DNA of 64,000 nucleotides from Planctomycetota bacterium (GTDB lineage Bacteria > Planctomycetota > UBA8108 > UBA1146). Below the pieces are notes generated by a model. It had not been told where the DNA came from, searched no databases, and saw only the letters and a list, made by a program, of their open reading frames with translations. The stretch is from positions 2,942 through 66,941 of the forward strand of contig DUAN01000189.1 of the NCBI GenBank assembly GCA_012960845.1. The letters are read 5' to 3'. Shown piece by piece: positions 7,693 to 34,630 of this stretch (the stretch's first letter is position 1; each line of letters opens with the position of its first letter). Both the position numbers and the translations under genes were made by a program.

Positions 7693-7701
7693 TTCAAATC
7701 G

Positions 7702-7727: not shown

Positions 7728-7749
7728 TGGCTTCGTTGCAGGAGGAGAT

Positions 7750-10881: not shown

Positions 10882-10926
10882 GGTACTGAAGGACAGGTTG
10901 CTGAAGGGCATGTTGCTGAAGGGCAA
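10882..10926 (-). repeat. three tandem 15-nt repeats (minus strand TGCCCTTCAGCAACN) abutting the start codon of the 9634..10881 gene
   Basis: Seen directly: + strand GGTACTGAAGGACAG / GTTGCTGAAGGGCAT / GTTGCTGAAGGGCAA. Confidence 0.6.
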
Positions 10927-10967
10927 GGTGATTCCTTTCTCAAAAGGGGATGGACAGGTCAAGTTTC

Positions 10968-14364: not shown

Positions 14365-15434
14365 CCCGGATCCCTGGCCCCTGGGATCCTCACCGTCTTA
14401 CGGAATTCGGAACCGTGGACGACAAACCGAAGACGGGAGTGCTCCACCGCAGTGGTGCCTCGCATCCCTCTATCACAGTCGAGAAAAGCACCACTGGTGA
14501 GCCGCCCCACTCGAATCCATTCAGAGTCGATACGGATGTAATTGTCGGGACCGATCGGATACTGAGCGGTCGAATCGACGAGGATGTCTCCGCTACTCCC
14601 GTCGATATCCTCACTCAGTCGGGCAAGTGCAGCGGAACGGGCCGGTTTCAGCACCAGCAACACCTCGACAGTATCGGGAAAGACATCATCGAAGGGATCA
14701 TCTCGGCTTGCTGAATCCCAGTAGATTCCCGACTGGCGGTCCATCGGCAAGATGCCCCGCGTCGAATCCCAGAAGGAAAGCGGTGGTTGCACCTTGCCAG
14801 CGACAAAGCGACGACGATCTCCACCCCAGAACGACCATTCGATGTGGAGTACTCCATCTGCGATGGGACGGCTGCGCCGCGGCGTCCCGTCGACATCCGG
14901 CGCCAGGTTGACATCATTGAACAGGGTACCTTCGCCCCCGATAGGACTCTTGAAGCCTCTCCACAACACCTCGGACCCCTCCTCGGGTCCCATCGAGTAA
15001 CTGACCTCGCACAGGCCACCCGGGGCGCGCAGAATTCCCAATCGAGCTTCCATCGAGTCATTATTGTAATCGATATCGGCGAGACCACCGGTGAGAGATC
15101 CAGCAATCCGGGTTATCGGGTTCCTGACCTCCTCGTCGAGCACGCTGACCATCCTCAAACGGGATCGCCCCCGGCCATCTCGGTCACAGAGCAGCAAGAC
15201 TTCGACCAGACCACCACCGGGTCCCGGATCTGGTTGTGAGAAGAGTGATCGCAGGTCGGCGCAGAGAGGCTCGAGGATCGCTTCTGCTCGCTCGATCGAT
15301 TCGCGTCTCGATTCGCCGACTTGCCAGGTGGAGATGCCATCTCTCAGGAACACGACAAGACCGCTACCGAGCATCACGAAGATACCCAGTGCCACCAGAA
15401 TCTCGATGAGGGTCAGTCCCTGTTCTTTGTTCAT
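14352..15434 (-). CDS. GspJ-like minor pseudopilin; start at MNKEQG|LTLIEIL (TGATG overlap with upstream stop)
   Basis: Prepilin-type N-terminus with Glu+5, GspJ-like helix following; stop/start overlap with giant upstream gene. Confidence 0.65.
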   Translation of the reverse strand: MNKEQGLTLIEILVALGIFVMLGSGLVVFLRDGISTWQVGESRRESIERAEAILEPLCADLRSLFSQPDPGPGGGLVEVLLLCDRDGRGRSRLRMVSVLDEEVRNPITRIAGSLTGGLADIDYNNDSMEARLGILRAPGGLCEVSYSMGPEEGSEVLWRGFKSPIGGEGTLFNDVNLAPDVDGTPRRSRPIADGVLHIEWSFWGGDRRRFVAGKVQPPLSFWDSTRGILPMDRQSGIYWDSASRDDPFDDVFPDTVEVLLVLKPARSAALARLSEDIDGSSGDILVDSTAQYPIGPDNYIRIDSEWIRVGRLTSGAFLDCDRGMRGTTAVEHSRLRFVVHGSEFRKTVRIPGARDPGWQR

Positions 15435-18400: not shown

Positions 18401-21175
18401 ACCGACCGGACGACGATCGATCAGCAGCACCAGATCTCCCGGCCTGGTCGATCTCCAACCGGCAGAGATGTGGTACCAGGTATCATCGGCGAAGGTGGTA
18501 GTGGTGACCGAGTGTCGCACCTCAGCTGCTGGAAGCACCTTGCTATCCCATGCAACTGCGGAACCGGTCTCATCAAAGACTTGCAGTACCAACTCCTGTG
18601 TATCCCCGGAGAAGAACAATCTCACACGATCGCGATAGCGATCCAGAGTCGGGCCTACCGAGTCAAAAATGATGCGATTGCCACTGCGCGATCCCCAGCG
18701 CGGGCGATACCAGAAATCGACCATTGCAGGAACTGTCGAAAGAGCGTCGTTGTTGGCACCCTGATCCGGCGTCAATTCGATTTGCGGCTCTCGCAATCCC
18801 CGCCCCCTGCGACCACCGCCTTGAGTCGGGTCAGCTTCTTGCTGTAGAAGAATTGAGCGCTTCCACGAACCATCTTCCAGTTCGTATCCTTCGATGGTCT
18901 CGTTGAAATGCTCGACCTCGAGCAAGCCCACCGCTCCGAATCCGTAGTTTCCAGAATCTCGATCGTAGGCGATGGTCTCCCCACGAAGAGTTCCCTCATC
19001 GAGAGAGGGACCGGTGAACTTTCGACGGTTGAGGGGGATCGGCCCACTGACCACAAGGTTCGACGCCCTACCGGGAACGAAAGTCGTATTGAAACGAGAA
19101 AAGCGCCCCCCTCCCGGATCCCGTGTGGCATAGATGGAAGCCCAATCCTGCTGAGTTTCTAGCCTCAATGAGAGCGGATCGGGAGGTGCGACCTCGATCA
19201 CTTCACGATACCGGACTGTCGCTTGCGGAGTACCCACAGGACTCCTGGCAACACCGGTAGACTCCACCGTGTAGATCTCCGATGTCGCATAGCAAAATCC
19301 AGTGGTAGAGATGGAGAGTCGTGGCTGATTTGGATTCAAGGCGTTGATGAGAATCGATTCTGAATCACCCCCATCGAGGACACCACTCAACTGAGCAGCT
19401 TCCACCACCTCACGAAAAGCAGCAAAACCAGAGATCGGCATCGCCTCCAGCAAGAGATCGGTCAACCCGCGAGCCTCTTTGACGGTCACTCCATTGAAGT
19501 TCTGCTCGAATCGATCGGTAGAGAGACCGGTCAATACCGCCTCGATGACTCTACGAGGGGCGGTGTTGATGTTGATGGGGTGCCTCAGTGCGGCACTGAC
19601 CATCGCCTCACGCTCAGCCCACTCGAATTTCAACGGCTCCTTGAGTATCACCCCGCCCTGGAAGATGGCTCCAGTTCCCATACCTCTGAATCCGCCCCGA
19701 GGAGTCGGGAACGCCCCGGCAGCAAGGCCGTACTCCACCTTGGAAGGATCATTGATACTACGAATCCGAACGACCGTCCCCGGATTGAAGAAGTCATATC
19801 GTGGAAGTCGCATCTGTGGCACTCCCAGCAGCGCACTATTGGTGATCTCGCCCTCGACCATCTGTTCCTGCGACCAAGCTCTTGGCTGAGTTGAGCTGGT
19901 AGTGATCAGGTCGCGGATCTGTTCAAACTCGAATGCCGAAAATGTTTCCATACCTGGGATATCGAATATTTCCTGGTAAGCGAGGATGGCACTGGGGAAG
20001 TAGGACTTGCCGCGTTTCTTGATCTTCTTCAGCTCTGGCGCGATGAAAGTCAAATACACACCTTTGAATGCATTCCCCCTGGCCTTGGTCAGACCAAACC
20101 CTTCGACCACCTCGGCCGCTTCGATCACTGCGGCTTTACCGCGAATCGACTCGAGCAGATCGACCACTTCCTTCGGGATATTATTATCGAGGAACAACTT
20201 TCGTGCCTTGCGATACTCTGCCTCGTCTACCTCCTCAGGCTCTTTCTGGAGCAAGGAAGGATCGATTCCAGCGCGCACCAGCATCTCGGTGGTCAGTCCC
20301 CAGTCCGCCATATTTTCAAAACTCAGGCCGACCACAGCAAGGGTCTGGAGGAAGTAAGGCACCACTGACCAATCGGCAATCTGGCGGATTCCAATCGGAG
20401 TACGAAAAGTGGCGATGTCTCCGTCCGAAAGGTTGGCGAGTCGGTGCAAGAATACCTTCAAGCCGCGCAGATCGAAGACCGGCCACCCTTTCTGGTGCTC
20501 CCATGTCCCCGACAAGTACTGCCCCCGGAAGATTCCGGTCAATGCCTTTTCGGTCTTGCCTGTGTAGGAGATCGCCTCGACAGTGAAGAAGAGCGGATTG
20601 AGGATCACGACCACACCATCCACCGTCTCCGGATCATCATCCGCAGGAAAGGACGAGGTGTCGTCGAGTGGCAATTCACCAATATCCGTTTCATAACTGA
20701 TCGCTTCTGAAAGGTGACTCCCGGCCAGCATGTTGCCGATGAGATTGGGCATCGCAGAGTTGATGTTGATCTTACCCTGCTCATCGGTCACCCGAGCATC
20801 GAGGATCACAGCAGAATCACCGCGCATCTGGAAGACCTCCGGCGCTGTGCCGACCACCGGCACGGAGGTGATCGTTGCGGGAAAATCGACCTTCAGTTCG
20901 TCGAGGCCGTCGATCAGATCTGGTGCCTCTGTACCGGGTCTCCACCGGTCTCGTTCACGACTGTGGTGGGTATCAAATAGTTTACTCAGAGCATGGCTCC
21001 TGGCACTTTGCGCTGCGAGACTCGCTCTTTGTTGCGCCAGTGATCGAGCGGCGCCTTTTTCCTGAAGTTTCATCGAGATCACGAATGGAGTGCCGATCGC
21101 GGCCAGGGCGGAAAGCACCAGGATCACCATCAACAGGGCCATTCCCCGCTCACGATACCGTATTAAATTATCCAC
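15434..21175 (-). CDS. giant (1913 aa) GspK-like minor pseudopilin / tip-like protein with large extracellular insertions
   Basis: N-terminus RERG|MALLMVILVLSALAAIG, prepilin-like but lacking Glu+5 as in GspK; two GspK-type helix-hairpin-helix motifs (KININSAMPNLIGNML and HPININTAPRRVIEAVLTGLS); single uninterrupted 5.7-kb ORF. Confidence 0.75.
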   Translation of the reverse strand: MDNLIRYRERGMALLMVILVLSALAAIGTPFVISMKLQEKGAARSLAQQRASLAAQSARSHALSKLFDTHHSRERDRWRPGTEAPDLIDGLDELKVDFPATITSVPVVGTAPEVFQMRGDSAVILDARVTDEQGKININSAMPNLIGNMLAGSHLSEAISYETDIGELPLDDTSSFPADDDPETVDGVVVILNPLFFTVEAISYTGKTEKALTGIFRGQYLSGTWEHQKGWPVFDLRGLKVFLHRLANLSDGDIATFRTPIGIRQIADWSVVPYFLQTLAVVGLSFENMADWGLTTEMLVRAGIDPSLLQKEPEEVDEAEYRKARKLFLDNNIPKEVVDLLESIRGKAAVIEAAEVVEGFGLTKARGNAFKGVYLTFIAPELKKIKKRGKSYFPSAILAYQEIFDIPGMETFSAFEFEQIRDLITTSSTQPRAWSQEQMVEGEITNSALLGVPQMRLPRYDFFNPGTVVRIRSINDPSKVEYGLAAGAFPTPRGGFRGMGTGAIFQGGVILKEPLKFEWAEREAMVSAALRHPININTAPRRVIEAVLTGLSTDRFEQNFNGVTVKEARGLTDLLLEAMPISGFAAFREVVEAAQLSGVLDGGDSESILINALNPNQPRLSISTTGFCYATSEIYTVESTGVARSPVGTPQATVRYREVIEVAPPDPLSLRLETQQDWASIYATRDPGGGRFSRFNTTFVPGRASNLVVSGPIPLNRRKFTGPSLDEGTLRGETIAYDRDSGNYGFGAVGLLEVEHFNETIEGYELEDGSWKRSILLQQEADPTQGGGRRGRGLREPQIELTPDQGANNDALSTVPAMVDFWYRPRWGSRSGNRIIFDSVGPTLDRYRDRVRLFFSGDTQELVLQVFDETGSAVAWDSKVLPAAEVRHSVTTTTFADDTWYHISAGWRSTRPGDLVLLIDRRPVGRQSWLSRLNGALSFSGNRVSIVDGDMATRFPPNGTLLVGSEAIDYSGREGASFIVRPPGPNGSPPIGRGVRGTVRSSHASGTPVRLLGYSLPLANSDPRRALTDSSNDIIIGPGGASLEIEVTPTMRVSAFNTSNGAVELTPATFSRASTQVPFSVGSPVTSTLELEPFAANSLSLLVQTNGSHPLELGFPPRGYLHIRQWTQQGTEPRRLVATEFAKYSSITPGPVPGLYRFTAMGRALLNSTATVGIITATSTTTLQVRGVSIESNATDLNQSYAPSGVIQIDYMPGSQSIGLLQDAEWIRYTQIAEGKFFICDPDQVDAFRGFTGDKYINTGDPFRRNRPLWDMNGIVRHAAGQEITQVVRAVGASAGFADEVILGDGYGDPTNRLREDTPLRVRKVRETDSGTYVSFYWPPEGIYRPGQDPRIRRFPSGGLPSSTNGEIRFGSSMISGDGIDAPGTLDEVRFSRLDSSDVETYAFPAASNGGFRTMAIQASPGLPSGVRTEVIQSGYSKQDSEQPGGVLDRIHLLARSKLTASAPQPQGPESGASLPTGGVRTFSKGDPRGFGLGKREGLFQVDDEVMHYTFDPGQVEPDVVIQLEQDLPRDPYLDENALGEGEVVPYDPNRDLRVEVVNSIQVDNTANLPPNGGFLEMISGPTNEVLYYEQASNGVLRNVLRGQLGSSVGGYVYQWSYTDAAGAVQVVTNTHRLRLIPSRIIDVMTRGMLATERTSNELGREPLVPLPSIPVARLAGQVAESGLTLEVMGPPGNEGGNRQLAGFPSGEGYLLVDDGIITTPDEIIAHTGAQGSSFGLFRDDRTGKGIFRGRFGTDFKVQPAGTPVIELLARHHDRYQPLVESKDLQYLERAWTMPGTMWDRIRWEVEQSRNRATAGSVRVLARFDGVPGWDSIPTNQPGGLYLFDDPADVNRLGQFGDALEIRIHYRHRKGAHGQTRQSGVWNDEWKHLPVLKTLGIEHRKEWRILHHEEYPY

Positions 21176-22562
21176 GGATCGCCCCCGTCATATCGATCAC
21201 GATGTTATGGAGGCGCAGAACCGACGTTCCATCGACATCGCCGATTCCGTAATGCATCCCTGGAGTCGAAGGAACCGGATTCTGCTCCTCTGCTTCCCCT
21301 GTGACAGCTTCAGGATCCACTTCCCAGTCCTCCAGATGTTTCATCAGATCCGAAATTGGATCCCCGAACGCCTGAGCAATCTCTTCATCTCGACTCGTCT
21401 GCTCCTGCCGCTCACGCTCGATACGATCCCTGAACCCTTCGCCGGCGACGGCTGTTCCATCGGCCGCTTCGATTTCGGAGAAATCACCCACTTCCGCCAC
21501 ATGAATCACAACGGGACGATTGTGTTGCAAGGGATCCAGAGCGCCTCGACCATCCAGATGGATCACGGTAGTGGGTCCCAGAATTTCGATGTCGATGGGC
21601 ATCTCCACGACCACCGGAGTGGTCGCCACACGGAGAACCACTTGATCGATGGCTCCCATGAAAAATCGATTGGGATGACTGATCCACAGGTCGGAATCAC
21701 TATGGGGGACAGCAGTGGGCAAAGGAGGCCATTGATCGATCACCACCTTTTCGAATCTCTCGGGCACCCAGGGCTGCTCGACGCCGTCGACTTCGATGAC
21801 CAGTTCAGTTCGGTCGAAGGTCGCTCTCAGGTGAACCCAGCGATCGGGAACCAGCGTAGAACCTTCCGTCTGTGCCCGGATGAACTCCCCTTCGCTGGCC
21901 CTCAGAGGGTCGCCGATCTCCATGTAGACAGCACCGTCCCCGAGGACTCCCATCTCGAAAGAGTTGGGGATTCCCAGAACTGCCATGCGCATTTCTCGTC
22001 GGGGATCGGAGAAGCCACCGTCGGGCTCGATACCAACCTCGGGAAGCCACGGTGGCTGCCAGAAATGAACCCACGCTTCGATGGAGACTCCATCTCGTCC
22101 ATCATAAATGGGAAGCCGCCGAACACGAAATGCAGCCCCATCGTCGAGGAACATCGCCCCTCTTCCGACGGAACCTGCGCAGGCTTCGACCCGTCCCACC
22201 AACTCCGCGGGTTGACGAAATGCCCCCACTGTCTTCGAGCCCGCGGGAAGCGGGATTTTTTCAGGAAGACCGTGAAAATCCTCGAATCCCCATGCTCCTG
22301 CGAGCTGGAATCCAAAGGCGCTCACTTTTCCTCGATCTGGATCGACCAGGATCCGGCTCGGCATCCCGGTAGAAATCGACCAGTTTCGAGCGGCGCGAAC
22401 CGTCGTCGAGATGCTGCTGGATGCGATCTCCAGCGATTGCGCCTCTCCAAATGACTGAAAAACGGAAATCGACAATCCCATCAAAACGGACAGGATCGAA
22501 AGAACCACCAGCAATTCCATCAGGGTCACACCGACCTCAGAATCGACTGCCTTCTTTACCAT
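21168..22562 (-). CDS. GspH-like pseudopilin fused to C-terminal LamG/ConA-like jelly-roll domain
   Basis: SEVG|VTLMELLVVLSILSVLMGLSISVF prepilin N-terminus with Glu+5; C-terminal DGVSIEAWVHF...RWVHLRATFDRTELVIEVDGVE LamG-like signature. Confidence 0.7.
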   Translation of the reverse strand: MVKKAVDSEVGVTLMELLVVLSILSVLMGLSISVFQSFGEAQSLEIASSSISTTVRAARNWSISTGMPSRILVDPDRGKVSAFGFQLAGAWGFEDFHGLPEKIPLPAGSKTVGAFRQPAELVGRVEACAGSVGRGAMFLDDGAAFRVRRLPIYDGRDGVSIEAWVHFWQPPWLPEVGIEPDGGFSDPRREMRMAVLGIPNSFEMGVLGDGAVYMEIGDPLRASEGEFIRAQTEGSTLVPDRWVHLRATFDRTELVIEVDGVEQPWVPERFEKVVIDQWPPLPTAVPHSDSDLWISHPNRFFMGAIDQVVLRVATTPVVVEMPIDIEILGPTTVIHLDGRGALDPLQHNRPVVIHVAEVGDFSEIEAADGTAVAGEGFRDRIERERQEQTSRDEEIAQAFGDPISDLMKHLEDWEVDPEAVTGEAEEQNPVPSTPGMHYGIGDVDGTSVLRLHNIVIDMTGAIRG

Positions 22563-23197
22563 GGCGCCACATCGTCCGAGTCTGCCGCCTCGTCAGAATG
22601 CATCTGGTGAATGCCATCGGGACCTGCAGACCAGATCTGAAATCTTAGCGGTTCGTGAAAGGTCGCAGTCTTCAGAGAAGTCCCCGCCTGGATCTTGACC
22701 GGTCCAGTTTCCTGGGTCACGGAGTATTCGATCCCGTAGTCTCGGTTGTGCATGTAGACGTAGGGAACACCCCAGGGGTCGACATACTCCCGCAACTGAT
22801 CATCTCCGAAGACCCATCGCATCTGCTGATACAGATCCGCGTTTCGCAGATGATCCTGATCGAGGTTTTCGAGAAACTCTTCCTTGAACTCAAAGTAACT
22901 TCGGCCCCTGGATCGACTGGCGAGATGGGCCACCAGACTCTCATTTCCCTCGTCGAGGCCGTTGCCAGAGATCTCGTATTCCTTCTCCATCGAACTGGGA
23001 GGGTAATCTCCAAAATCGAGTTGATAGGTCTCAACGCCCAGCACCAACCTCTGCATCTCCTGCTCGGCCAGTCCGATGGAACTACTCTTGATGGCGAAAC
23101 CGACCATCTTTGAACCGAGTCCAGCCAGAACACCGATGATGGCAATCACCACCAGCAACTCGACCAGGGTGAATCCAGCTCGTGGAGAAGAAGTCAT
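22556..23197 (-). CDS. gspG: GspG-like major pseudopilin (type II secretion / type IV pilin-like)
   Basis: MTSSPRAG|FTLVELLVVIAIIGVLAGLG with Glu+5, followed by GspG-like EQEMQRLVLGVETYQLDFGDYPPS segment. Confidence 0.8.
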   Translation of the reverse strand: MTSSPRAGFTLVELLVVIAIIGVLAGLGSKMVGFAIKSSSIGLAEQEMQRLVLGVETYQLDFGDYPPSSMEKEYEISGNGLDEGNESLVAHLASRSRGRSYFEFKEEFLENLDQDHLRNADLYQQMRWVFGDDQLREYVDPWGVPYVYMHNRDYGIEYSVTQETGPVKIQAGTSLKTATFHEPLRFQIWSAGPDGIHQMHSDEAADSDDVAPW

Positions 23198-25528
23198 CTA
23201 GTACTCCTGTTCCCGAACAGAGACCGCCTTGCGTCGAAAGACCTCGAACTCCTCGACCGCCAGCTTGTATCTCTCACCGAGCGGAGCCTGCCCTGAAAAA
23301 CCCGCCGTCAAACCAGACTTCCGGACAGGCCGATAGGAAATTTTTTGCGCCACAAGGATGCCGTCAAACCACAATTCCGCACCCTTCTTGCCGTCCCTGG
23401 TGAAGATGAACTCCAACTGGTGTGCCCGATCATCGAGATCCCAGGAGGTGGCAATTAATCCATAGTCTTCCGCCTGCTCAACATCGTCACTGCGCACCAT
23501 CTCGATCTCTTTGCCACCGAGAAGTGCGAAACCCAGAACGCCATCTGGATCACGGAAGAAGATCAGCCCTCCGCCCGATTGATCTTCGATGCGAAAAGCG
23601 ACCCTTGTGCCAGCCCCTGCGGACAACAACCGCAGTGTCGAACGAATGCCGGTCAAGCGTGGGGTTAGAACTTCTCGTTTCATAGTTGTCAGACGGTCCG
23701 GTTGGTGCTTCTGAACCCCATCCAGCACGGCCATTCCATCCTGGAGTGAAACGGAAACACCGAAGGCTTCCTCTTCTCGCCAGTTATTTTGCAGCGAGGA
23801 GTCCGCCTCCCTCTCGAAGTCATCGAACCAGTACTCTTCGCCAAGGGTTCGGTTAATTCTACGGAATGCCCGCAACGCCCAGCGCAAGGGAGCCGGAGAG
23901 TCCGGTGTCCAGGATTCGCGCAACTTTTCCGGGAACAGTTCGAGAGATTTCCCCAGAGCACGTCGAGCCCCCTGAAGATCTCCACTGGTGTGCAGAAATT
24001 CAGCGAGAGCATTCCAGCCATCGGGATTCTTTGGCTGTTCGATGGTCACGAGGGTGAGAGATTCTCGGGCCCGCTCGGGATCACCACCGGGCCCCCGTTG
24101 CGCCAGCCCAAGGCGAAGCATCACATCGGAGCCATCGAGCCCACTGGCGATGGCATACTCCAACCACCTTCTTGCTTCAGCCAGTTCCCCCAGGGAGAGT
24201 GCGTGATCCCCCAGTACCAGGGCACATTCAGCGAATGCTGCGGAGGACAATACGTCATGCCGCATCACCTTTTCGATCTCCGGGGTCGGATCCCAACCTG
24301 GCTCCAGTCGCATCCTCGCCTCGATGCTCAGTAACCGTGATTGCCAGGTGGCATCGGCCTGCAGCGCCGCTTCGAGATACAAGTCCACAGCGGCGCGCGA
24401 TTCCCCCCTCGACTCCAGCACATAGGCTTCCACCAGTCGCCAGTCCACCTCGACCTTGCTTCCCGAGGAAGCGGAAGACAGTAGGTCGAGAGCTTTTTCG
24501 AAATAACCCATCCGGGCAAAGGAGAGCGCAAAGGTAGTGGCAGCAATCGCATCGACACTACCTGCCCTGAAAGCCTTCTTGAAGTCGCTTTGCGCCAGGC
24601 TCAACTCATCATCGAGCAATCGTGCAGAACCTCGATAGAGATAACTTTGACCATCGTCACCACCAGCAACGATCAGGTCTTCAAACATCTGCTCGATCGA
24701 TTCCCGCGATTCCAACGACCCTGCGGCATAGTCGAGGACTGCCCAACGGATTTCTCGTTGCAAGACCTCGACGTCACTTCCACCACCGCCTTCACGCAGA
24801 CGGTTTGCTGCCTCTCTCGACTCAGCCGTTCGACCCAGAGAATCGAGAAGGACGACTAGTTTTTTCAGAGCGGCAGCGACGCGCGGGTCTGCCATTTCTC
24901 CTTCGCTGATCTGGGTGAGTAGAATGACTGCCGCTTCATGTTCGCCGATCTGGATCAACTGAGTCACCGCCAGTTCGACCAGACCATCCTGTTCGATCCC
25001 GGCCTGCACCCCACGAAGGAGAGTCTCGACCATCATCACAGCAGCCGCCATTTCCTGATCCCTGGTCTTGAACTGGCGAAGTTGAGTCTGTTGGTAGATC
25101 GGCATCAGCAGTAGATAAGGAGCGGGAGCTGCGGGATCCAGTCGTACCGATTCCTCCAGGTGGCTGACCCCTTGCTCCAATAGCCCCACACCGGGATCAA
25201 GGCACCACTGACCGATTTCAAACTGGGACTCAGAAGATGCAACATCGAAATCCCCCATCCGTCGCGCTTGATAGACCTTTTCCGGAGGATTCCGATACCT
25301 GATACTTTTGACTTCTGACATTTTGAAGGAGACCTTGCCCGCTGAAGTTTCAAACTGAATCAGTTCAGTCAACTCTGCGAGAATCGTGCCTTCGAACTGG
25401 TTGCCGTTGGTCAATTCGATCAGATCGAAAGCACGGATCTCCAGGTCGATGGCACTTTGGGCCTCGACCACGGACCAGGAAAAGAGCAGGAGGCTCAGCA
25501 GGACGATGCGGTTGTACTTGTTCATCAC
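23198..25528 (-). CDS. secreted TPR-repeat protein with C-terminal LamG-like/jelly-roll domain
   Basis: Signal peptide MMNKYNRIVLLSLLLFSWSVVEA; many TPR-like helical repeats; C-terminal HQLEFIFTRDGKKGAELWFDGILV jelly-roll signature. Confidence 0.65.
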   Translation of the reverse strand: MMNKYNRIVLLSLLLFSWSVVEAQSAIDLEIRAFDLIELTNGNQFEGTILAELTELIQFETSAGKVSFKMSEVKSIRYRNPPEKVYQARRMGDFDVASSESQFEIGQWCLDPGVGLLEQGVSHLEESVRLDPAAPAPYLLLMPIYQQTQLRQFKTRDQEMAAAVMMVETLLRGVQAGIEQDGLVELAVTQLIQIGEHEAAVILLTQISEGEMADPRVAAALKKLVVLLDSLGRTAESREAANRLREGGGGSDVEVLQREIRWAVLDYAAGSLESRESIEQMFEDLIVAGGDDGQSYLYRGSARLLDDELSLAQSDFKKAFRAGSVDAIAATTFALSFARMGYFEKALDLLSSASSGSKVEVDWRLVEAYVLESRGESRAAVDLYLEAALQADATWQSRLLSIEARMRLEPGWDPTPEIEKVMRHDVLSSAAFAECALVLGDHALSLGELAEARRWLEYAIASGLDGSDVMLRLGLAQRGPGGDPERARESLTLVTIEQPKNPDGWNALAEFLHTSGDLQGARRALGKSLELFPEKLRESWTPDSPAPLRWALRAFRRINRTLGEEYWFDDFEREADSSLQNNWREEEAFGVSVSLQDGMAVLDGVQKHQPDRLTTMKREVLTPRLTGIRSTLRLLSAGAGTRVAFRIEDQSGGGLIFFRDPDGVLGFALLGGKEIEMVRSDDVEQAEDYGLIATSWDLDDRAHQLEFIFTRDGKKGAELWFDGILVAQKISYRPVRKSGLTAGFSGQAPLGERYKLAVEEFEVFRRKAVSVREQEY

Positions 25529-25911
25529 TGCGACTCCTCATCTTCATCGACTGCCACGGGTATCTTCAGTTCAGCTCGCAAGCGGGTTCTGGGGTCCCCG
25601 GAGACCAGTGCTGGCAGTGGGATTCTGCGCGGCACGGAGCTCACTGGAGGTTCCCCGAGTAAATCCGCCGGAGCAGGTTTCCAATCGCTGACACTGGCGA
25701 ATGGATTTCTGGCCGCCTCGATGGGAGCCGGCTCATACCACTCCAGCCTCACCAGCCCTCCGACAGTTCCTCCATCGCTCGATTCCGGTGTCCGCAGATC
25801 GACAGCCGCAAGTGGATCTTCCAGGATGTAAGTCTTTGCCAGTCCCAGAAGATTCAGCAGCAAAAATCCAAGACAGAGGACGCAGAATCCTTTTTCGATA
25901 TTCCAGCGCAT
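25525..25911 (-). CDS. small membrane-anchored hypothetical protein (PilP-like position)
   Basis: N-terminal hydrophobic helix FCVLCLGFLLLNLLGLA; translationally coupled within operon; no domain recognised. Confidence 0.4.
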   Translation of the reverse strand: MRWNIEKGFCVLCLGFLLLNLLGLAKTYILEDPLAAVDLRTPESSDGGTVGGLVRLEWYEPAPIEAARNPFASVSDWKPAPADLLGEPPVSSVPRRIPLPALVSGDPRTRLRAELKIPVAVDEDEESQ

Positions 25912-26717
25912 CAGAACCCCCTCCTCGAACGGTCAGAACCCCTTCGAGTAGAACTCGACTCCACTCGGGGGTCTTCCATGTCGATCCCGACTACCGTCAA
26001 TTCCACTTCGATCTTGTCTCCACCAGATTTCTCAGGGATCACCCGGATCGGCTCCAGTGACAGGAATCCGCCATTTCTCTGGAAACGAAGCAGCATTTCT
26101 GCCAACTGTTCCGGCAAGCAGAGCATCTTGACCTGGAGGGGATAACGCGCGAGTACCTTGTCTGGATCTTGTAGCGCTTCCTGAATCCTCTTCGCCGGGT
26201 TCACGTCATCGAGACGCGCCACCCCGGTCTGAAGACAAACCCTGGTAAATCGATCGAGCACCTCCAGCAAGCGATATCGATCGGACCACTCCAGTAGAGA
26301 CAGGTCCGATCGCTCATCGAAATTCGGTATCTCAGCCGGCGTCACCATGCCAGCGCGATTGGCTTGGTTTCTGAAGTTGTTCCAGACCAGATCCTTGGCG
26401 CGCTTGAAGTCGGTACTGACAGATGCTTCATCGACCGATGGCTGGTGTACCGCAGAATAGGCAATGCCTAGTTTCTTGAGGAGATCCCGATTGCGCTCCT
26501 CGAGAGCGGTCCGGGATTTCCTCTCCACATCGACCACTCCTTCGAGCCCCTCGAGATCCTGAGCGACCAGTTGAGCATCCTCTTCATGACGAGCCAGGCT
26601 GATCTCATGCTCAGAGCGATAACCCCGGGTCACATTGGATATCACGAGAAAGATCGCCAGTGCGGAGAGAGCCTGGATCAAGACCTTACGATTTTTTTGC
26701 CAGATTTCCTGCATCAT
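25911..26717 (-). CDS. GspM/PilO-like bitopic inner-membrane assembly protein
   Basis: Single N-terminal TM (VLIQALSALAIFLVISNV), coiled-coil, C-terminal ferredoxin-like region; position after GspL-like gene. Confidence 0.5.
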   Translation of the reverse strand: MMQEIWQKNRKVLIQALSALAIFLVISNVTRGYRSEHEISLARHEEDAQLVAQDLEGLEGVVDVERKSRTALEERNRDLLKKLGIAYSAVHQPSVDEASVSTDFKRAKDLVWNNFRNQANRAGMVTPAEIPNFDERSDLSLLEWSDRYRLLEVLDRFTRVCLQTGVARLDDVNPAKRIQEALQDPDKVLARYPLQVKMLCLPEQLAEMLLRFQRNGGFLSLEPIRVIPEKSGGDKIEVELTVVGIDMEDPRVESSSTRRGSDRSRRGF

Positions 26718-28333
26718 CCTCTCCCCCCGAATGGTGACTTGGTTCGTCGCCTGCCTGGTCCACGGCTACTCTTCTCAGGTAATTTCTCATCCGGAGATAC
26801 CAGGATGCTGAAGGGATAGGCTCCTGACTTCTGATCGTCCGGTGTCGAGCGAACCCTCTCAACACCAGATATCCCCTCGAGGTTTCTCTGCAAGGTCTCG
26901 ATCGCTTCGAGCCCATTGCGACGAGAGTTATCGGACTGGCCGATCAACTCGATCTCGATTCCTATTTTCGCATCACCTACCACCCGGCGAAGGCTGATCT
27001 GCTCCAGTGAAATTTCCGAAGGGAGATCCTGGCGAAGACCATCGAGGATTTTCGCATAAAACTTCCCCGTCTCGATCTCCTGGACGATCCTGGTCTCTCT
27101 CTTGCGAAACACGTCGTTTTTGGTTCGAGCGTCTTCCTCGGCATTACGCCAACTGGTGATATTTCCGCGCCATTTGCGAATCGTTTCCGAGGCACCCGAG
27201 GAACGTCCGGCAGATACCGACACGTCCATCACCTGCAATCCGACGGCAAGAATCAGCGCTGCTACACCTACCCATAGAAATCGTGTGTGATCGCGGAACG
27301 TCCTGCGCTCGCATTCGGCGCTGGGTAACAGATCGACGATCTGCTCCTCCGAATCGAGCGCTGCTGCTGCGGTTCCGACTACCAGGGTCCACTGTGGGCC
27401 ATCGGTTCCACTAAAGGAGACTTCCTCGATATCTTTACCGAGCAGATCTCGTAATTCAGCACCGCGACACACCAGTGCCGCTCCGATGCCCGATACCAGA
27501 ATTCGATCTGCCACGACATCGTCAATTTTCAACTGTGCCTGGCAGAAGGTGAGGGAAGAAGTGAGCATCTGTCCCAGTTGGCTGGTCCACCCTCGGTGGC
27601 AGCCAATCATCGCCTCTTCTCCGTCGAGCAGGTCACCCGACGAGAAGGCTTCGACCATCTTGCGCGCTTTCGACTCCGAGACCGAGAGGCGTTCAGAGAC
27701 CAGATCCACCATCCCATTCAGGCCAAATCCAACGGTGCGAGCAAACAACAACCGATTCTCGCGGACCACCAGTACCTGCGTTTCTGCCTCCTGAACGTCG
27801 CACACCAGTACCGTCTGATCGCCACTGTCAGGACCATGGCTGGCGAGGTGCCCATGATAGGCCCCGATTGCAGAAGGCAATGCCAGCTGCACCTGCCCCT
27901 TACTCTCGCGAATCTGATCGATGATGGGCTGGATCACTGCGTCTTTCCCGACCCCTAGCAACAACAATGTGTCCTCGGAAAGGCTTTCAGGGACCAGCAG
28001 TTCGATGTGCCCACCGGAGAGTGCGTCTCCAGTCTTTTCGGCGATCTCCTCGATCTCGTAATGAAGGATCAAATCGAGTCTCCAGGAGGGCACCGGAGGC
28101 ACACTGTGGTAACGCAGAGAAGAACTCTCGCCATCGAGAACCAGCGCGATGTTACCGGTTGGGAATCCCAACTTCGACAGTTCAGCGATCCATGCACCGA
28201 TACTCGACTCATCATCGGGTTTCAACTCGTGGACAGAAGCCACTTCAACGGTGTGACCGACCCCACGTACATGGGCCGCACGCCAGCGATTTTCCTTCAC
28301 CTCGAGTACGGCTACCTGCCCCTTGTAGGACAT
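26714..28333 (-). CDS. GspL-like protein: cytoplasmic actin-like (PilM-type) domain, one TM, periplasmic PilN-like domain
   Basis: N-terminal PilM/GspL-cyto-like region, TM helix FLWVGVAALILAVGLQVMDV, ~150-aa periplasmic tail. Confidence 0.6.
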   Translation of the reverse strand: MSYKGQVAVLEVKENRWRAAHVRGVGHTVEVASVHELKPDDESSIGAWIAELSKLGFPTGNIALVLDGESSSLRYHSVPPVPSWRLDLILHYEIEEIAEKTGDALSGGHIELLVPESLSEDTLLLLGVGKDAVIQPIIDQIRESKGQVQLALPSAIGAYHGHLASHGPDSGDQTVLVCDVQEAETQVLVVRENRLLFARTVGFGLNGMVDLVSERLSVSESKARKMVEAFSSGDLLDGEEAMIGCHRGWTSQLGQMLTSSLTFCQAQLKIDDVVADRILVSGIGAALVCRGAELRDLLGKDIEEVSFSGTDGPQWTLVVGTAAAALDSEEQIVDLLPSAECERRTFRDHTRFLWVGVAALILAVGLQVMDVSVSAGRSSGASETIRKWRGNITSWRNAEEDARTKNDVFRKRETRIVQEIETGKFYAKILDGLRQDLPSEISLEQISLRRVVGDAKIGIEIELIGQSDNSRRNGLEAIETLQRNLEGISGVERVRSTPDDQKSGAYPFSILVSPDEKLPEKSSRGPGRRRTKSPFGGRG

Positions 28334-30894
28334 CAGTTCCCCCTCGCATGGATGAGTTTCAATTCCTGAATCGCAACGGCCGCTCCCGGTGAGCCCGGAT
28401 ACTGATTCAGCAACGATTGAAAGTAGAATCGTGCGATCTCGAATCTGTTTTTACCGAGCGCCTCGTGAGCACGAGCCAGCAACAGTTCCACCTTACCGAC
28501 GGTCAAGAGTTGCTCTGCATTTGTGTTTTCACTCTTGCGCTGATCGATGATTTCCTGCGCCCTCGTGGCCGGATCCAGTCCCCCGAATCTAGCCATCGAT
28601 TCGCGGCAGATCCTTTCGAGATAGGTACCGGTAGGTGACCCTGGAAACTTCGATGAATCCTCAAGGACGGCTGCGATCTGCCCGAGCGCAGCACTGACCT
28701 CGACATCGATGTGGTGCTCGAACTGATCCAGTTTTCGGGCCACGTCGGCTCGCCAGGGGAAATCTGCTCGAGCCTTCTGGATCAATCGAGCCGCATCCCC
28801 CTCGGCCCTGGCATCGATGGCGCGTTCCACCTCGGCGAGAGCCTCCAGCACTCGGGATTGCTCGCGCTCACTACTGGCGGTGAATGAAACATCGAGCGCG
28901 CCTCCGGCGATGATAATTCCTGCGTCCGCCATCCACAGCGTGCCTCGCCCGTCATGGTCAGGGAATACCGAAAACGTCATCGGCTGTTGAAATGTCGCCA
29001 CCATCTGGTCCTTGCCGATTCCGATCGAGATCTCGGTGCCGGAACAGGGCTGCAGATCGGTCCAGCGATCCGCCGAGATGACCAGTTTATTGCCGACAAA
29101 GACCTGCACAGGAGAAGAACCCCTTCGGCGAGGAATCCTCCCGACCAGGATCAATGGAGTGGGGCGTTGCGGAGTCCAACTGGCTGCAATCTTCCAGCCG
29201 ATGGAGCGAGCGAACTGCTGAATCGCCACCTTTCCTTGCCCTAGTTCATCCAGTTCGAAACCGAGTCGAACCGATCCGTCATCCCCGGTGACCACTTGCT
29301 CTCGCCGAACCGGCAGTAACTGCCCCCATGGCATCGCTCTGGGAGGTCCGACCGCCACTCGAAGGTCCGAGATCAATTCCTGCCGTCCCCGCATCAACTT
29401 GCCAACGCCGTAGGCATCGATGGCCAGATCCATCTTCTGTTCATCATCACCTGCGGAAATGACGACCGCTGGATCTCTCCCAGTCTCGACCGCTCTGACC
29501 ACCAACTGGTCGAGCAATAGTTGACCGCTTCCTTGCCCCAGTGCCACCAGCGAGACTCTTGCAGACCCTCCATTTCCCTTCACCGGAGGTGCAAACTCTG
29601 CAGCATGCCCACTCCAGTTCGAGGACGACTTCAAGGAAGAAAACTGTTCGTCAATTATTCGGTCACCTTGATCGCTCGACTCGATCCAACGAACGCAGAA
29701 TCCGATCCGATCGAAACCGACCTTTTGAAGACGAGCACTGAGCCGTAAACCATGACCCTGATCGACCTCGAAGATGGTGTCATACTCGAGGCGGAAAATC
29801 CCCAGTGCATCGGCTTCTCCGCTGCACAAGAGCCACTGCTTCCCCTGTGGAGCCTGGTCGCCTCGTTGAACATCGAGGGTTCCCTCGCCGCTGGCGAGTC
29901 GCCATGGTCCATCGAGTATCGGGCCGATGGGCACCTGTTCGAAATGTCCAGCTCCGGAAAGCCGATCACCCCGGGGGACCACCAGGTCAGGATTACTTGC
30001 GAGATCCTCAATCCACCCGTAGCCAGAGTAGAGCACCACACCCAGTACCAGGATGAAGGAGATGGTGAAGAGCCCCTGAGATCCCTGTGAACCAACATCG
30101 ACCCGGGTACTACGCCCCACTGTCATCTCGGCGGTAGGATTGGCCGCCGACCGGGTCGTCATACGAATGGCTGCTCGCCCATCTCCAGCTGATTTCGACC
30201 GACCGGGAAATCCCATCGCGGTGAACTTCGTCATGCCGATGCGGAATTGAACCCCATCTCTCAGTTCCAGTTTCTTGACCTTCTGTTGCCCCACCACGAT
30301 TCCATTTCCGGAGCCGAGGTCGGACATGTACCACTCACCATCTTGCTCGAGCAGGACGGCGTGCTTGGAAGATATTCTATTGTCCTCGATGGTCACGTCG
30401 GCCTCTTCGGCGCGCCCGATAACCACTCGCCCAACCGCTGGGATCCAGTGATCGATACCGCCATGCTGATAGGCCAGGCAAGGACCGGTGGGTGCAGTTG
30501 TGACAGAAGTTGCTGTGGAAGATGTGGCCGGTGCAGAAGCAGGTGCTGCGATCGGCGTTCGATCGGTATCATCCTCGAGTAGAGCCCCGTCTGTCAATTC
30601 TAGCAGCAACTCCGCATCCCCGATGCAGATGCAATCGCCATGAGAGAGGGTCACCTGGTCGACCTTTTGCCCGTGCAGGAGACTTCCATTGGAGGAAGAG
30701 AGATCCTGATAGATGAAAGCATCCCCCTCCCAGCGAAAAACTCCATGCTTTCTAGAAGCGGCTCGATCCTCGATCACGATGCGAGACCCGGGGTCCCTGC
30801 CGATTGTGATCGGTTCCTGAGAGATGTTGACGATGGTCTTGCGACCGATGTCCTTCACGCGAATCCTGCCACTCATGCTAGTGCTCCCCATCAT
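28333..30894 (-). CDS. membrane protein with two N-terminal cytoplasmic FHA domains, one TM helix, large periplasmic domain and C-terminal TPR-like helical region
   Basis: FHA1 ITIGRDPGSRIVIEDRAASRKHGVF...SSNGSLLHGQKV, FHA2 VVIGRAEEADVTIEDNRISSKHAVL...GSGNGIVVGQQKV, TM LFTISFILVLGVVLYSGYGWI; no P-loop. Confidence 0.75.
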   Translation of the reverse strand: MMGSTSMSGRIRVKDIGRKTIVNISQEPITIGRDPGSRIVIEDRAASRKHGVFRWEGDAFIYQDLSSSNGSLLHGQKVDQVTLSHGDCICIGDAELLLELTDGALLEDDTDRTPIAAPASAPATSSTATSVTTAPTGPCLAYQHGGIDHWIPAVGRVVIGRAEEADVTIEDNRISSKHAVLLEQDGEWYMSDLGSGNGIVVGQQKVKKLELRDGVQFRIGMTKFTAMGFPGRSKSAGDGRAAIRMTTRSAANPTAEMTVGRSTRVDVGSQGSQGLFTISFILVLGVVLYSGYGWIEDLASNPDLVVPRGDRLSGAGHFEQVPIGPILDGPWRLASGEGTLDVQRGDQAPQGKQWLLCSGEADALGIFRLEYDTIFEVDQGHGLRLSARLQKVGFDRIGFCVRWIESSDQGDRIIDEQFSSLKSSSNWSGHAAEFAPPVKGNGGSARVSLVALGQGSGQLLLDQLVVRAVETGRDPAVVISAGDDEQKMDLAIDAYGVGKLMRGRQELISDLRVAVGPPRAMPWGQLLPVRREQVVTGDDGSVRLGFELDELGQGKVAIQQFARSIGWKIAASWTPQRPTPLILVGRIPRRRGSSPVQVFVGNKLVISADRWTDLQPCSGTEISIGIGKDQMVATFQQPMTFSVFPDHDGRGTLWMADAGIIIAGGALDVSFTASSEREQSRVLEALAEVERAIDARAEGDAARLIQKARADFPWRADVARKLDQFEHHIDVEVSAALGQIAAVLEDSSKFPGSPTGTYLERICRESMARFGGLDPATRAQEIIDQRKSENTNAEQLLTVGKVELLLARAHEALGKNRFEIARFYFQSLLNQYPGSPGAAVAIQELKLIHARGN

Positions 30895-32971
30895 TCCCTG
30901 AATTACGCTTCAAACGATACTTCTCGATCTTCTGATCCAGTGTCGGTCTTGAGACTCCCAGTTGTCGGGCGGTCTTGCTCTTGTTCCAGGAGTTCTCCTC
31001 GAGGATGGCAGCGATCACCTGACGCTCCAGGCCCTCGGTCGCTTCTGCCACCAGTTCCCGCAGGGTGCCGCGCATCGGTTCACGATTTTCAGATCCCGCC
31101 TTGGGACCATGCGACAGCACCGATGGGGAGATCGTCTCGGGGACGATGACGTCTTCGGAGAGCGCCACCAGGCGCTCGATCTCATTCTCCAGCTGACGAA
31201 CATTGCCAGGCCAGGGACTGTGATAGAGTGCATATAGAGTTCTCGGATCCATCTTGGGTCGATCTCGATCATGGCGGGAACAGACCTCATCGATGAAGTG
31301 GTCCACCAGCAGTGGAATGTCCTCTCGTCGTTCTCGAAGAGCGGGCAACTGGACCGTCAGAACATTCAATCGATAGTAAAGGTCTTCGCGAAAATTACCG
31401 TTTCGAACCATCTCTTCGAGCTTTTGATTGGTGGCGGATAGGATCCGAACTTCCACGCGAATCGTATCCCGAGATCCGACCGGTCGAATTTCACCATCTT
31501 CGAGAACCCGCAGTAATTTCGCCTGTAGTTCCTTACTCATGTCGCCGATCTCATCGAGGAACAGGGTGCCTCCATCGGCCAGTTCGAAGAGCCCCTTCTT
31601 GTCGCGATGGGCGCCAGTGAAGGCACCCTTCACATGACCGAAGAACTCACTCTCCAGCAAATTCTCAGGAATCGCTGCGCAGTTCTGCGAGACGAAGGGC
31701 TGGTCCTTGCGGTTCGATCCAACGTGAACCGCCTGTGCCACCAGTTCCTTGCCGGTTCCGCTCTCTCCGAGGATCAGCACCGGCATGTCGGTATTGATCA
31801 CGCGATCGAGCAGTTCGAAGACTCGAATCATGATCGGCGAGCGGGTCACGATTCGATCAAAGGAGTGCTTCAGATCGGGTCTGGCCCCTCGTTTGAGTAA
31901 CTCCCGAACATCCTCGGGTTCTACATCTCGAGCAATCAGCATCGCCTGAAATTCTCGGTTCAGCGCCTCGACCTGGTCCTTGGAAGACTGGATCGCTTCC
32001 TGTTTGCGATGCAGTTCCTCGAACAAACGGGCATTCTCGATGTAGATCGCTGCCTGATCCGCGAGGAACTGGACGAAACGGAGAGTCCCCTTATGGAATG
32101 AGTGCTTTTCAAATCGATTATCGACATAGGCGGCACCCAGTATCTTGCCACGCAATCGAAGGGGCACACACAGGACCGACTCCAGCCGCAAGTTTGCGAT
32201 GGAGGCCGATTCATGGAAGCGAGGATCACTTCGTGCATCTCCGGTCAATACCGGCTCACCCGAATCGATGACTCTCCGAGTGAGTGACTGGCTGACCTGT
32301 AGGTGAGCCCTTCGAACCACATCTCGGTCGATGTTTCGGGATGAAGCCACCCGCAGTTCCCCATCCTCCTCGATGATCAAGAATCCCCGCTCCGCTCCAG
32401 AAATCTCGATGATATTCTGAAGGATCACCTCGAACAGTTCTTCCGTCACGAGGATGGCACCGAGGTCCCTGGTCAACTGGAGCAAGCGGAGAAAGATCTC
32501 TCTTTCCTTCTGGAAGCGAATCGGATCCTCGGTGGTGGCCTCTTCTGCGATCGGTTCAAGAAAGTACTCGGTACTGAGAACCAGGGTTTCGCCGGCAGGA
32601 GCATTTTCACGATGCATTTCAGGAATCTCGCCGAAGAAGATCTGAGTCTTGCCGATCTCGATCAGATCCCCGACCATCAAGGGCTGACGCCGAATCAGGA
32701 TCCCGTTGACGAGAGTGCCATTGCGACTTCGCAGGTCCTCGATGTGCCAGCGCCCCTGGATCCTGTTCAACTGACAATGCTCACGGGATGACGAGATGTC
32801 GCCGACCTCGACATCGTTCTCTCGTGAGCGACCGATGGCGATCGATTCTGCATCCAACCGGACACGGCGCTCCCCCGCCATATCACGAATGATCAGCTCA
32901 GCAGGGCTCGCCGCGTGGTTCGGCTGCCCTCCATGTCGTGCTCGTTCAGGCACGTCCAATGTGGTCTCCAT
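30878..32971 (-). CDS. sigma-54-dependent transcriptional activator with N-terminal FHA and GAF domains (FHA-GAF-AAA+-HTH)
   Basis: FHA IAIGRSRENDVEVGDISSSREHCQL...SRNGTLVNG; GAF; sigma-54 activator motifs VLILGESGTGKELVAQAVH, ESEFFGHVKGAFTGA; C-terminal Fis-type HTH. Confidence 0.85.
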   Translation of the reverse strand: METTLDVPERARHGGQPNHAASPAELIIRDMAGERRVRLDAESIAIGRSRENDVEVGDISSSREHCQLNRIQGRWHIEDLRSRNGTLVNGILIRRQPLMVGDLIEIGKTQIFFGEIPEMHRENAPAGETLVLSTEYFLEPIAEEATTEDPIRFQKEREIFLRLLQLTRDLGAILVTEELFEVILQNIIEISGAERGFLIIEEDGELRVASSRNIDRDVVRRAHLQVSQSLTRRVIDSGEPVLTGDARSDPRFHESASIANLRLESVLCVPLRLRGKILGAAYVDNRFEKHSFHKGTLRFVQFLADQAAIYIENARLFEELHRKQEAIQSSKDQVEALNREFQAMLIARDVEPEDVRELLKRGARPDLKHSFDRIVTRSPIMIRVFELLDRVINTDMPVLILGESGTGKELVAQAVHVGSNRKDQPFVSQNCAAIPENLLESEFFGHVKGAFTGAHRDKKGLFELADGGTLFLDEIGDMSKELQAKLLRVLEDGEIRPVGSRDTIRVEVRILSATNQKLEEMVRNGNFREDLYYRLNVLTVQLPALRERREDIPLLVDHFIDEVCSRHDRDRPKMDPRTLYALYHSPWPGNVRQLENEIERLVALSEDVIVPETISPSVLSHGPKAGSENREPMRGTLRELVAEATEGLERQVIAAILEENSWNKSKTARQLGVSRPTLDQKIEKYRLKRNSGNDGEH

Positions 32972-34530: not shown

Positions 34531-34630
34531 CCAGAATCCTCCTGGCCTCCGCAAGCCTAGACCCGGAAGCTCGAAATCACAAGGCTGACTGGACGCATAT
34601 CTACGACTAGGATCGAGCAGGAGAATCATC

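Follow-up and report, generated by a model that had tools for sequence, protein, structure and literature searches.

The gene at 28333..30876 on the minus strand of the 64,000-nucleotide stretch analysed here (the window) encodes a protein that we interpret, at about even confidence, as a phosphothreonine-gated bitopic inner-membrane accessory subunit of a type IVa-pilus-like machine of Planctomycetota, with a lectin-like periplasmic part. The term accessory subunit is used operationally and refers to conserved gene linkage. An accessory or regulatory role in the pilus is probable because the family gene adjoins type IV pilus assembly genes, and the protein may physically belong to the machine; it is probably a previously undescribed part of it and not an EssC-like ATPase remnant. 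In Proteobacteria the components of type IV pilus and type II secretion machines have been mapped in detail, and to our knowledge FHA domains are missing from all the canonical ones. If the interpretation is correct, a conserved membrane subunit that combines phosphothreonine reading with a lectin-like ectodomain would represent a novel means of gating or anchoring such machines, and the target, the neighbouring PilM-PilN fusion and the giant pilin-like protein of the same locus would together offer a genetic entry to the little-understood surface fibres of Planctomycetota. On the ordinary reading alone, the target would be one more lineage-specific accessory protein of a small family.

An ORF scan of the window gave an ORF of 853 codons (28333..30894, minus strand). 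In the homologue alignment all proteins start at its seventh codon (MSGRI...), and an SD-like GGGGAG is found ~8 nt 5' of the ATG at 30876, so the true gene most likely spans 28333..30876 and encodes 847 aa. The TAG stop of the upstream activator (30880-30878) is 1 nt from this ATG and the TGA stop of the target overlaps the ATG of the next gene as TGATG, which bears out the coupling of the target to both neighbours noted in the original prediction. Homologues with 47-99% identity in 13 MAG loci and 76 profile matches make a chance ORF unlikely; the target ORF is real. The 76 relatives, a number that counts clusters at 50% identity, were retrieved by a profile search that covered 1.84 billion representatives. 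The layout is the same in nearly all full-length members, for most members with a stated organism this is one of the uncultured Planctomycetota, and the members known so far all derive from metagenomes. Judged from its sequence, the target is an inner-membrane protein that is conserved in uncultured marine Planctomycetota.

The Pfam FHA family (PF00498) matches the target in two stretches, ORF residues ~25-98 and 157-225, with E 1.1e-31 and a score of 109.5 bits (gathering cutoff 20.7 bits). FHA domain 1 (30601..30822, minus strand) contains the phosphothreonine-binding residues G32-R33, S47-R-K-H50 and N69-G70 (GR/SRKH/NG motifs), and PDB sequence matches to GarA and Rv0020c span its residues 25-98. 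The corresponding residues of FHA domain 2 (30220..30426, minus strand; best Pfam stretch 157-220) are G160-R161, S175-S-K-H178 and N197-G198 (GR/SSKH/NG), and this region is matched by the Rv1747 FHA structure 6ccd_A with E 1e-6. All 24 matches of the PDB sequence search at E<=1 were mycobacterial-type canonical FHA proteins. GR, SxxH and NG define the canonical phosphothreonine-binding FHA domain (PMC3162421) and are retained in the first as well as the second FHA domain by 62-65 of the 66 family members; by this definition both domains of the target appear to be of the canonical type and are predicted to act in a phospho-dependent manner. The linker between them (30427..30600, minus strand; ORF residues ~99-156) is of low complexity and rich in S, T, P and A. 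Across the family linkers vary from 23 to 127 aa but are alike in composition, most being S/T/P-rich. T110 of the linker is near-invariant in the close clade only, and a motif survey of 66 members together with a linker comparison revealed no phospho-acceptor Thr conserved family-wide.

A hydropathy scan detected a single hydrophobic segment in the target (30010..30075, minus strand; ORF residues ~274-295), as in each protein of the family, and no N-terminal signal peptide was found. From the single transmembrane helix and the lack of a signal peptide, the FHA pair is predicted to be cytoplasmic and the C-terminal region extracytoplasmic; the positive-inside rule was uninformative for this topology. 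The 557-aa C-terminal region matches no Pfam or NCBIfam family, and its AlphaFold2 model (pLDDT 90) consists of three parts, all encoded on the minus strand: a CBM4/CBM22-like beta jelly roll (29482..29925; ORF residues ~324-471), a galactose-mutarotase-like beta-supersandwich (28879..29466; ~477-672) and a C-terminal seven-helix domain with a weakly TPR-like terminal hairpin (28336..28869; ~676-853). This combination of folds is absent from Pfam. The jelly roll of the CBM4/CBM22 type is seen in the model only at the level of the fold, as just one of 22 members tested gave a match to Pfam CBM_4_9, with E 0.047. With two FHA stretches, one hydrophobic segment and a large extracytoplasmic region, the overall layout agrees with the original prediction, as does the absence of a P-loop, AAA, FtsK or other ATPase domain from the Pfam and NCBIfam results. 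The helical end proposed there is also present, but it matches TPR only weakly (TPR_6, E 0.01), and TPR is not the main constituent of the periplasmic region, which is composed of the two beta-modules and the helical domain.

Could the target be a membrane-anchored carbohydrate-active enzyme, i.e. a relative of mutarotases, glycoside hydrolases or lyases unrelated to pilus assembly? We consider this very improbable. The fold matches to enzymes cover accessory beta-sandwich parts (~150-200 aligned residues, 7-20% identity) and do not reach the catalytic domains. Aldose 1-epimerases (galactose mutarotases) rely on conserved His and Glu; these catalytic residues were not found in the target, and the mutarotase-like module has no histidine that is invariant or nearly so across the family. 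The C-terminal region has no match to a GH or PL family of Pfam, and the synteny with pilus genes likewise argues against an enzyme. The periplasmic part is therefore not the known enzyme that would have spoken against the original prediction; its modelled folds suggest a non-enzymatic, lectin-like region that may bind glycans. Descent from a type VII secretion protein of the EssC type, with degeneration and loss of the ATPase domains, is practically untenable. The order FHA-FHA-membrane segment does resemble the N-terminus of firmicute EssC, hence the EssC-like front end of the original prediction, but the likeness is confined to domain order. EssC has two transmembrane helices and three cytoplasmic FtsK/SpoIIIE ATPase domains; in the target there is one helix, and a folded, conserved and ATPase-free ectodomain of ~550 aa takes the place of the ATPases, an architecture that contradicts the EssC reading. 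None of the 24 PDB matches (E<=1) is named EssC or another T7SS protein, the window contains no T7SS genes, and Planctomycetota are a diderm lineage.

An indication of function comes from the gene neighbourhood, in which all genes described here lie on the minus strand. Directly downstream of the family gene, in 9 of 10 genomic contexts and across divergent members, is a PilM-PilN fusion, in the window a 539-aa protein composed of an actin-like PilM, a transmembrane helix and a periplasmic domain in the PilN position (26714..28333). In a profile search of the PDB it matched Myxococcus xanthus PilM (3jc8_Ma) with E 6.8e-37 versus E 0.57 for GspL, and PilM_2 is annotated on its syntenic homologues; the GspL-like label given to this neighbour earlier is thus replaced, while the proposed link to fibre assembly probably holds in view of the synteny. 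The linkage to pilM reaches weak profile matches (L021, P0075; E 2e-5), and one distant member, P0070 (L016), does not adjoin pilM. After the fusion come genes for a PilO-like protein, a TPR protein and pseudopilins, one of which is a giant of ~1400-2100 aa. In the window, the PilO position is occupied by a bitopic protein of 268 aa (25911..26717), whose best PDB profile match, PilO 3jc8_Oa, is weak (E 0.016) and whose homologue in L019 weakly matches T2SSM_b. The PilP position is taken by a membrane-anchored protein of 128 aa (25525..25911); its alignment shows the motif R(D/N)PF...W...PP to be invariant, and it has no PDB or Pfam match. A secreted TPR protein of 776 aa (23198..25528; Pfam TPR) with a signal-peptide-like N-terminus, homologous to a neighbour in L018, occupies what would be the PilQ position of a T4aP operon. 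Four prepilin-type genes were identified with Pfam and NCBIfam (14352..23197): GspG-like (213 aa), GspH-like with LamG (464 aa), a giant of 1913 aa with a GspK-like N-terminus, and an N_methyl protein of 372 aa. Synteny, compared for the first three of these, is kept in L018 and L020-L022. The machine is only partly defined because its ATPase, platform protein, secretin and prepilin peptidase are absent from the window. Upstream of the family gene, an FHA-GAF-sigma54 activator is encoded in 8 of 10 contexts (in the window an FHA-GAF-sigma54 AAA+-HTH_8 enhancer-binding protein by Pfam, 30878..32971); its FHA domain is also canonical (GR/SREH/NG). In the distant locus L021 this slot holds a receptor Ser/Thr kinase instead. 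The window contains neither a kinase nor a PP2C phosphatase gene, and a Hanks-type Ser/Thr kinase is encoded elsewhere in the same genome.

These observations are compatible with a mechanism in which the tandem FHA domains and the disordered S/T/P-rich linker would read phosphothreonine marks written by a Hanks-type Ser/Thr kinase, encoded elsewhere in the genome or, in the one distant relative, directly upstream. The FHA domain of the sigma54 activator in the same operon might receive this phospho-signal too, so that the machine's expression and its assembly would be gated jointly, as in T6SS threonine phosphorylation or in the FHA-linker-FHA arrangement of Rv1747. On the periplasmic side, the CBM4/22-like module, the mutarotase-like supersandwich and the helical stalk would form a non-enzymatic lectin-like arm. 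Its probable ligand is either a glycan (peptidoglycan or a polysaccharide of the periplasm) or a partner protein, and by this contact the arm would position or anchor the PilM-N/PilO platform. A more far-reaching version, which we hold to be quite unlikely, places the target at the core of a so far unrecognised trans-envelope checkpoint of Planctomycetota: the arm would sense a polysaccharide or cell-wall glycan, the FHA pair, driven by a receptor Ser/Thr kinase, would nucleate a T4aP-like machine with co-switching of the sigma54 activator, and the resulting fibres, tipped by the ~2000-aa giant pilin-like adhesin, would possibly be those proposed for planctomycete polysaccharide capture.

Two alternatives compete with the accessory-subunit interpretation. 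The target may act outside the machine, mainly as a transmembrane sensor or as a co-regulator of the FHA-GAF-sigma54 activator, and control pilus-gene transcription, its periplasmic modules detecting a glycan or envelope cue and its FHA domains sequestering or releasing a phosphorylated partner, either a kinase or the activator. This is possible, if on balance unlikely: the activator adjoins in most contexts and is 1 nt away in the window, canonical FHA domains occur in both proteins, CBM-like folds are typical ligand-binding modules, and a receptor kinase replaces the activator in L021. However, the target is more tightly linked to pilM-N than to the activator, as the linkage occurs in 9 of 10 contexts, includes a stop/start overlap and is kept where the activator is replaced; the target also has no output domain, and its operon position between regulator and structural genes is not decisive.

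The second alternative, a purely structural anchor or spacer with FHA domains that work independently of phosphorylation, is unlikely. The target resembles the SctD proteins of T3SS (YscD/PrgH/MxiG), which belong to an envelope-spanning machine, in that both are bitopic with the N-terminus inside, one transmembrane helix, cytoplasmic FHA fold(s) and a large periplasmic part, and Pfam Yop-YscD_cpl matches the target (E 1.5e-25). Chlamydial CdsD has two FHA domains. Nonetheless, the alpha-beta-beta-alpha-beta ring-building motifs of SctD are replaced in the target by CBM, supersandwich and helices, and the gene context comprises PilM/N/O-like proteins and pseudopilins, not a T3SS. Peptidoglycan-binding accessory parts of T4aP machines include FimV, TsaP and the AMIN domains of PilQ, to which the target is possibly related by functional analogy as a periplasmic glycan-binding module on a pilus machine; its fold is CBM4/22-like and not LysM or AMIN, and we know of no FHA domains in FimV, TsaP or PilQ. 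Although T3SS ring proteins provide a precedent for phospho-independent FHA folds and the 64-kb window lacks a kinase, the GR/SxxH/NG pocket is lost in T3SS FHA folds, with that of MxiG being non-canonical and not binding phosphothreonine (PMC3162421), whereas the canonical pockets are kept here in at least 62 of 66 members. The kinase gene adjoining in L021 also argues for phospho-dependence.

On the cytoplasmic side, a close parallel is the Mycobacterium tuberculosis ABC exporter Rv1747, in which an N-terminal FHA-1, a disordered phospho-acceptor linker and FHA-2 are served by the kinase PknF, encoded by the adjacent pknF (PMC8339232, PMC3138270). In the target, too, two canonical FHA domains with a disordered S/T-rich linker between them precede the membrane part, and the kinase gene beside its relative in L021 recalls pknF; it differs in having a single transmembrane helix and a lectin-like ectodomain instead of an ABC transporter, no linker Thr conserved family-wide, and no kinase in the window. 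In the T6SS pathway (PpkA/PppA with Fha1/TagH) an FHA protein reads a kinase signal and triggers machine assembly (discussed in PMC8460266), a concept similar to the gating proposed here. TIGR03354 (T6SS TagH / VI_FHA) matches the FHA part of the target below cutoff (66.8 vs 120.25 bits), no T6SS genes are present, and the target is membrane-anchored with an ectodomain. The Kil (Tad-like) clusters of Myxococcus, enriched in FHA-domain proteins for which a signalling cascade was proposed (PMC8460266), likewise combine a type IV filament-family machine with FHA proteins. No homology to Kil was detected beyond the FHA domains; Kil is of the Tad type and its CpaF ATPase carries a fused FHA domain, whereas the partners of the target are T4aP-type PilM/N/O and T2SS-like pseudopilins.

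The gene encoding the FHA-FHA-TM protein (the target) lies on the minus strand of the window within an 853-codon ORF (28333..30894); residue numbers follow this ORF. In an alignment of the target with nine homologues, all sequences start at the seventh codon (MSGRIRV...), and the corresponding ATG (30876) has GGGGAG ahead of it and lies 1 nt past the TAG with which the upstream gene ends. Based on the homologue starts, the GGGGAG element and this spacing, the gene most likely extends over 28333..30876 and encodes 847 amino acids. Its TGA stop shares bases with the ATG of the next gene (TGATG), and the translational coupling proposed in the original prediction, between the upstream activator gene and the downstream gene, is thus borne out on both sides. 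A Pfam search identified two FHA domains (E 1.1e-31, residues about 25-98 and 157-225) and nothing else above threshold. A hydropathy scan revealed one TM segment (residues ~274-295); no signal peptide was found at the N-terminus. The remaining 557 residues (the ectodomain) matched no Pfam or NCBIfam family and no ATPase domain was found; the earlier description of an ORF with two FHA domains, one TM helix and no ATPase was therefore correct. As the positive-inside count around the helix does not discriminate (2.6 vs 2.4 K+R), we infer the topology from the lack of a signal peptide and the single TM helix, which would place the FHA domains in the cytoplasm and the C-terminal region outside.

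Phosphothreonine binding by FHA domains runs via GR, SxxH and NG motifs (PMC3162421). These motifs are present in both FHA domains of the target, and for each domain 62-65 out of 66 family members retain the Arg, Ser, His and Asn of the motifs. In contrast, T3SS ring proteins have FHA folds without a working pocket (PMC3162421). The target is topologically similar to the T3SS protein SctD; an identity with SctD was rejected on account of missing ring-building motifs and T3SS context, and an identity with TagH because the score remained under the cutoff. The top PDB sequence matches are the mycobacterial canonical FHA proteins GarA, Rv0020c and Rv1747. It is the regulatory module of Rv1747, in which PknF phosphorylates a disordered linker flanked by two FHA domains (PMC8339232, PMC3138270), that the FHA-linker-FHA arrangement resembles most closely. 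Across the family the linker between the FHA domains comprises 23-127 aa with abundant P, A, S, T and E; its threonine T110 is near-invariant within the close clade, not family-wide. Many family members also carry a juxtamembrane motif, [S/T]-R-[V/I/F]-D-[V/M]-[E/G], 15-25 residues ahead of the TM helix (in the target at residues ~258-268, window ~30091-30123, minus strand), which could be a candidate FHA ligand site (S/T-x-x-D).

The ectodomain was modeled with AlphaFold2. A first model using 7 close homologues only was poor (pLDDT 68.5) and was superseded by one using 22 sequences, down to 17% identity (pLDDT 90.1, pTM 0.75). This model divides into three parts, namely a CBM4/CBM22-like jelly roll, a galactose-mutarotase-like supersandwich and a seven-helix C-terminal domain (~676-853). 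Of the TPR-like helices predicted at the C-terminus, the helices are thus present in the model; the TPR_6 signal is weak (E 0.01) and originates from the last hairpin of the seven-helix domain. Profile-profile comparisons detected no homology of the ectodomain with that of a kinase in L021, a locus of another genome carrying a family member (probability 2.9%), or with a 776-aa TPR protein encoded nearby in the window (probability 0.8%).

With the C-terminal 557 aa as query, a word-indexed search returned only 18 clusters, all of FHA-FHA layout, and all named clusters among them were Planctomycetota MAGs. Word-indexed searches starting from the family alignment and from a distant member reached close clades only. 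An exhaustive profile search against 1.84 billion representatives (E <= 1e-3) matched 76 proteins, including fragments that span portions of the ectodomain. Nearly every full-length match (780-1010 aa) combines a pair of FHA domains at the N-terminus with a single TM helix and the shared C-terminal region of ~550 aa. Thirteen loci were found in species-representative genomes, 12 titled Planctomycetota/Planctomycetes and one Bacillota. The target family is real but small. The queried libraries contain no annotation for it beyond the FHA domains, and no description of the family or of the gene cluster was found in the literature.

On the minus strand, the cluster comprises an S13 DD-peptidase, the activator (FHA-GAF-sigma54 AAA+-HTH), the target, proteins of 539, 268 and 128 aa, the 776-aa secreted TPR protein, a GspG-like pseudopilin, a GspH-like pseudopilin with LamG, a 1913-aa protein with a GspK-like N-terminus and a 372-aa prepilin-type protein. 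The 539-aa protein, encoded directly downstream of the target, had been called GspL-like. A profile of this protein and its syntenic homologues matched PilM (M. xanthus E 6.8e-37, Thermus 1.7e-26, P. aeruginosa about 1e-24) and reached only E 0.57 against GspL. Since a TM helix and then a periplasmic domain follow the PilM part, the sequence identifies the 539-aa protein as a PilM-PilN fusion and not as GspL. The best PDB match of the 268-aa protein is PilO (weak, E 0.016), and one of its homologues gave a weak T2SSM_b match. The 128-aa membrane-anchored protein (25525-25911, minus strand) occupies the PilP position of the operon and has no relative in Pfam or by PDB profile search; its motif R(D/N)PF...W...PP...R..P is invariant across seven divergent loci. 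The 776-aa protein (23198-25528, minus strand), which carries a C-terminal beta-rich domain, fills the slot of the secretin PilQ in a T4aP operon. No pilus ATPase, platform protein, secretin or prepilin peptidase and no Ser/Thr kinase or PP2C phosphatase was found in the 64-kb window, and a consensus scan of the cluster's few intergenic gaps gave no convincing sigma54 promoter.

Ten contexts were compared, in which some members show ~20-25% ectodomain identity to the target or are weak family-profile matches. A PilM_2-type gene (536-562 aa) directly follows the family member in nine of them (the window, L011, L015, L017, L018, L019, L020, L021 and L022), L016 being the sole exception, and in eight the family member lies behind an FHA-sigma54 activator or, where a contig ends, the activator's HTH_8 tail. 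The neighbours in the other loci are genuinely homologous to their counterparts in the window. In L021, a distant relative of the cluster, the activator's slot directly upstream of the FHA-FHA-TM gene is taken by a 960-aa receptor-type Ser/Thr kinase (6944-9826, plus strand) with a kinase domain, a TM helix at 367-385 and a ~575-aa ectodomain, and a second kinase of 1073 aa is encoded nearby (216-3437, minus strand). This conserved context is the strongest evidence suggesting that the target works with a pilus-type platform and Ser/Thr kinase input.

The target is very probably tied functionally to a T4aP-like machine, most likely as a pThr-gated accessory subunit. Its tandem FHA domains would read a kinase signal that the canonical FHA domain of the activator would read in parallel, thereby coupling expression of the machine to its assembly, and the lectin-like arm formed by the ectodomain would hold on to a glycan or partner protein and so anchor or position the PilM-N/PilO platform. 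We hold this specific combination of phospho-gating and anchoring with moderate confidence. Such working would be akin to the FHA-dependent assembly control of the T6SS, and FHA proteins occur in the Kil, Tad-like type IV filament system (PMC8460266); no FHA-TM-lectin subunit beside PilM/N/O was found described in the literature.

The main rival, which we consider rather doubtful, is that the target, encoded next to the activator in most contexts, acts mainly on the activator, as its sensor or co-regulator; the linkage to the PilM_2-type gene, kept in nearly all contexts, is the tighter one. A phospho-independent structural anchor, against which the pThr-binding residues kept in both FHA domains speak, is less probable still. 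That the target is an enzyme is very improbable; the ectodomain includes a mutarotase-like fold but matched no Pfam or NCBIfam family. The EssC-like front end of the original prediction did not withstand comparison: the tandem FHA domains and TM helix are there, the ATPase domains and two TM helices of EssC are not, and none of 24 PDB sequence matches is named EssC or another T7SS protein. An EssC identity was rejected, and we give an EssC remnant practically no chance.

Several further features accompany the putative pThr-gated subunit. The first ~140 residues of the 1913-aa ORF (15434-21175, minus strand) match the GspK minor pseudopilin (NCBIfam E 3.9e-9) and the rest no Pfam family; giants of 1378 to 2098 aa are found in synteny after the pseudopilin genes in L018, L020, L021 and L022. 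The protein is a candidate giant tip pilin or adhesin, and interest would rise if it and the glycan-binding arm turned out to be parts of a polysaccharide-capturing fibre system. A 464-aa protein (21168-22562, minus strand) combines a GspH-like prepilin N-terminus with Laminin_G_3 (concanavalin-like), and its position is conserved in relatives. Just upstream of the activator, the S13 DD-carboxypeptidase/endopeptidase (PBP4-like; 33058-34653, minus strand) could be dedicated to remodelling peptidoglycan for the machine; an S13 peptidase is in the matching place in L015, L018 and L022, and in L011 this slot holds a 519-aa ORF matched by size and place alone. Divergent from the S13 gene is a 408-aa ORF without a Pfam match (34631-35857, plus strand), and ORFs similar in size and position alone lie divergently upstream of the S13 gene or slot in L011 (4081-5343) and L015 (92-1348). 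Just outside the pilin gene cluster, past its last gene, two adjacent NHL-repeat/beta-propeller-like proteins of 450 and 542 aa are encoded (9634-12596, minus strand; Vgb_lyase and NHL matches).
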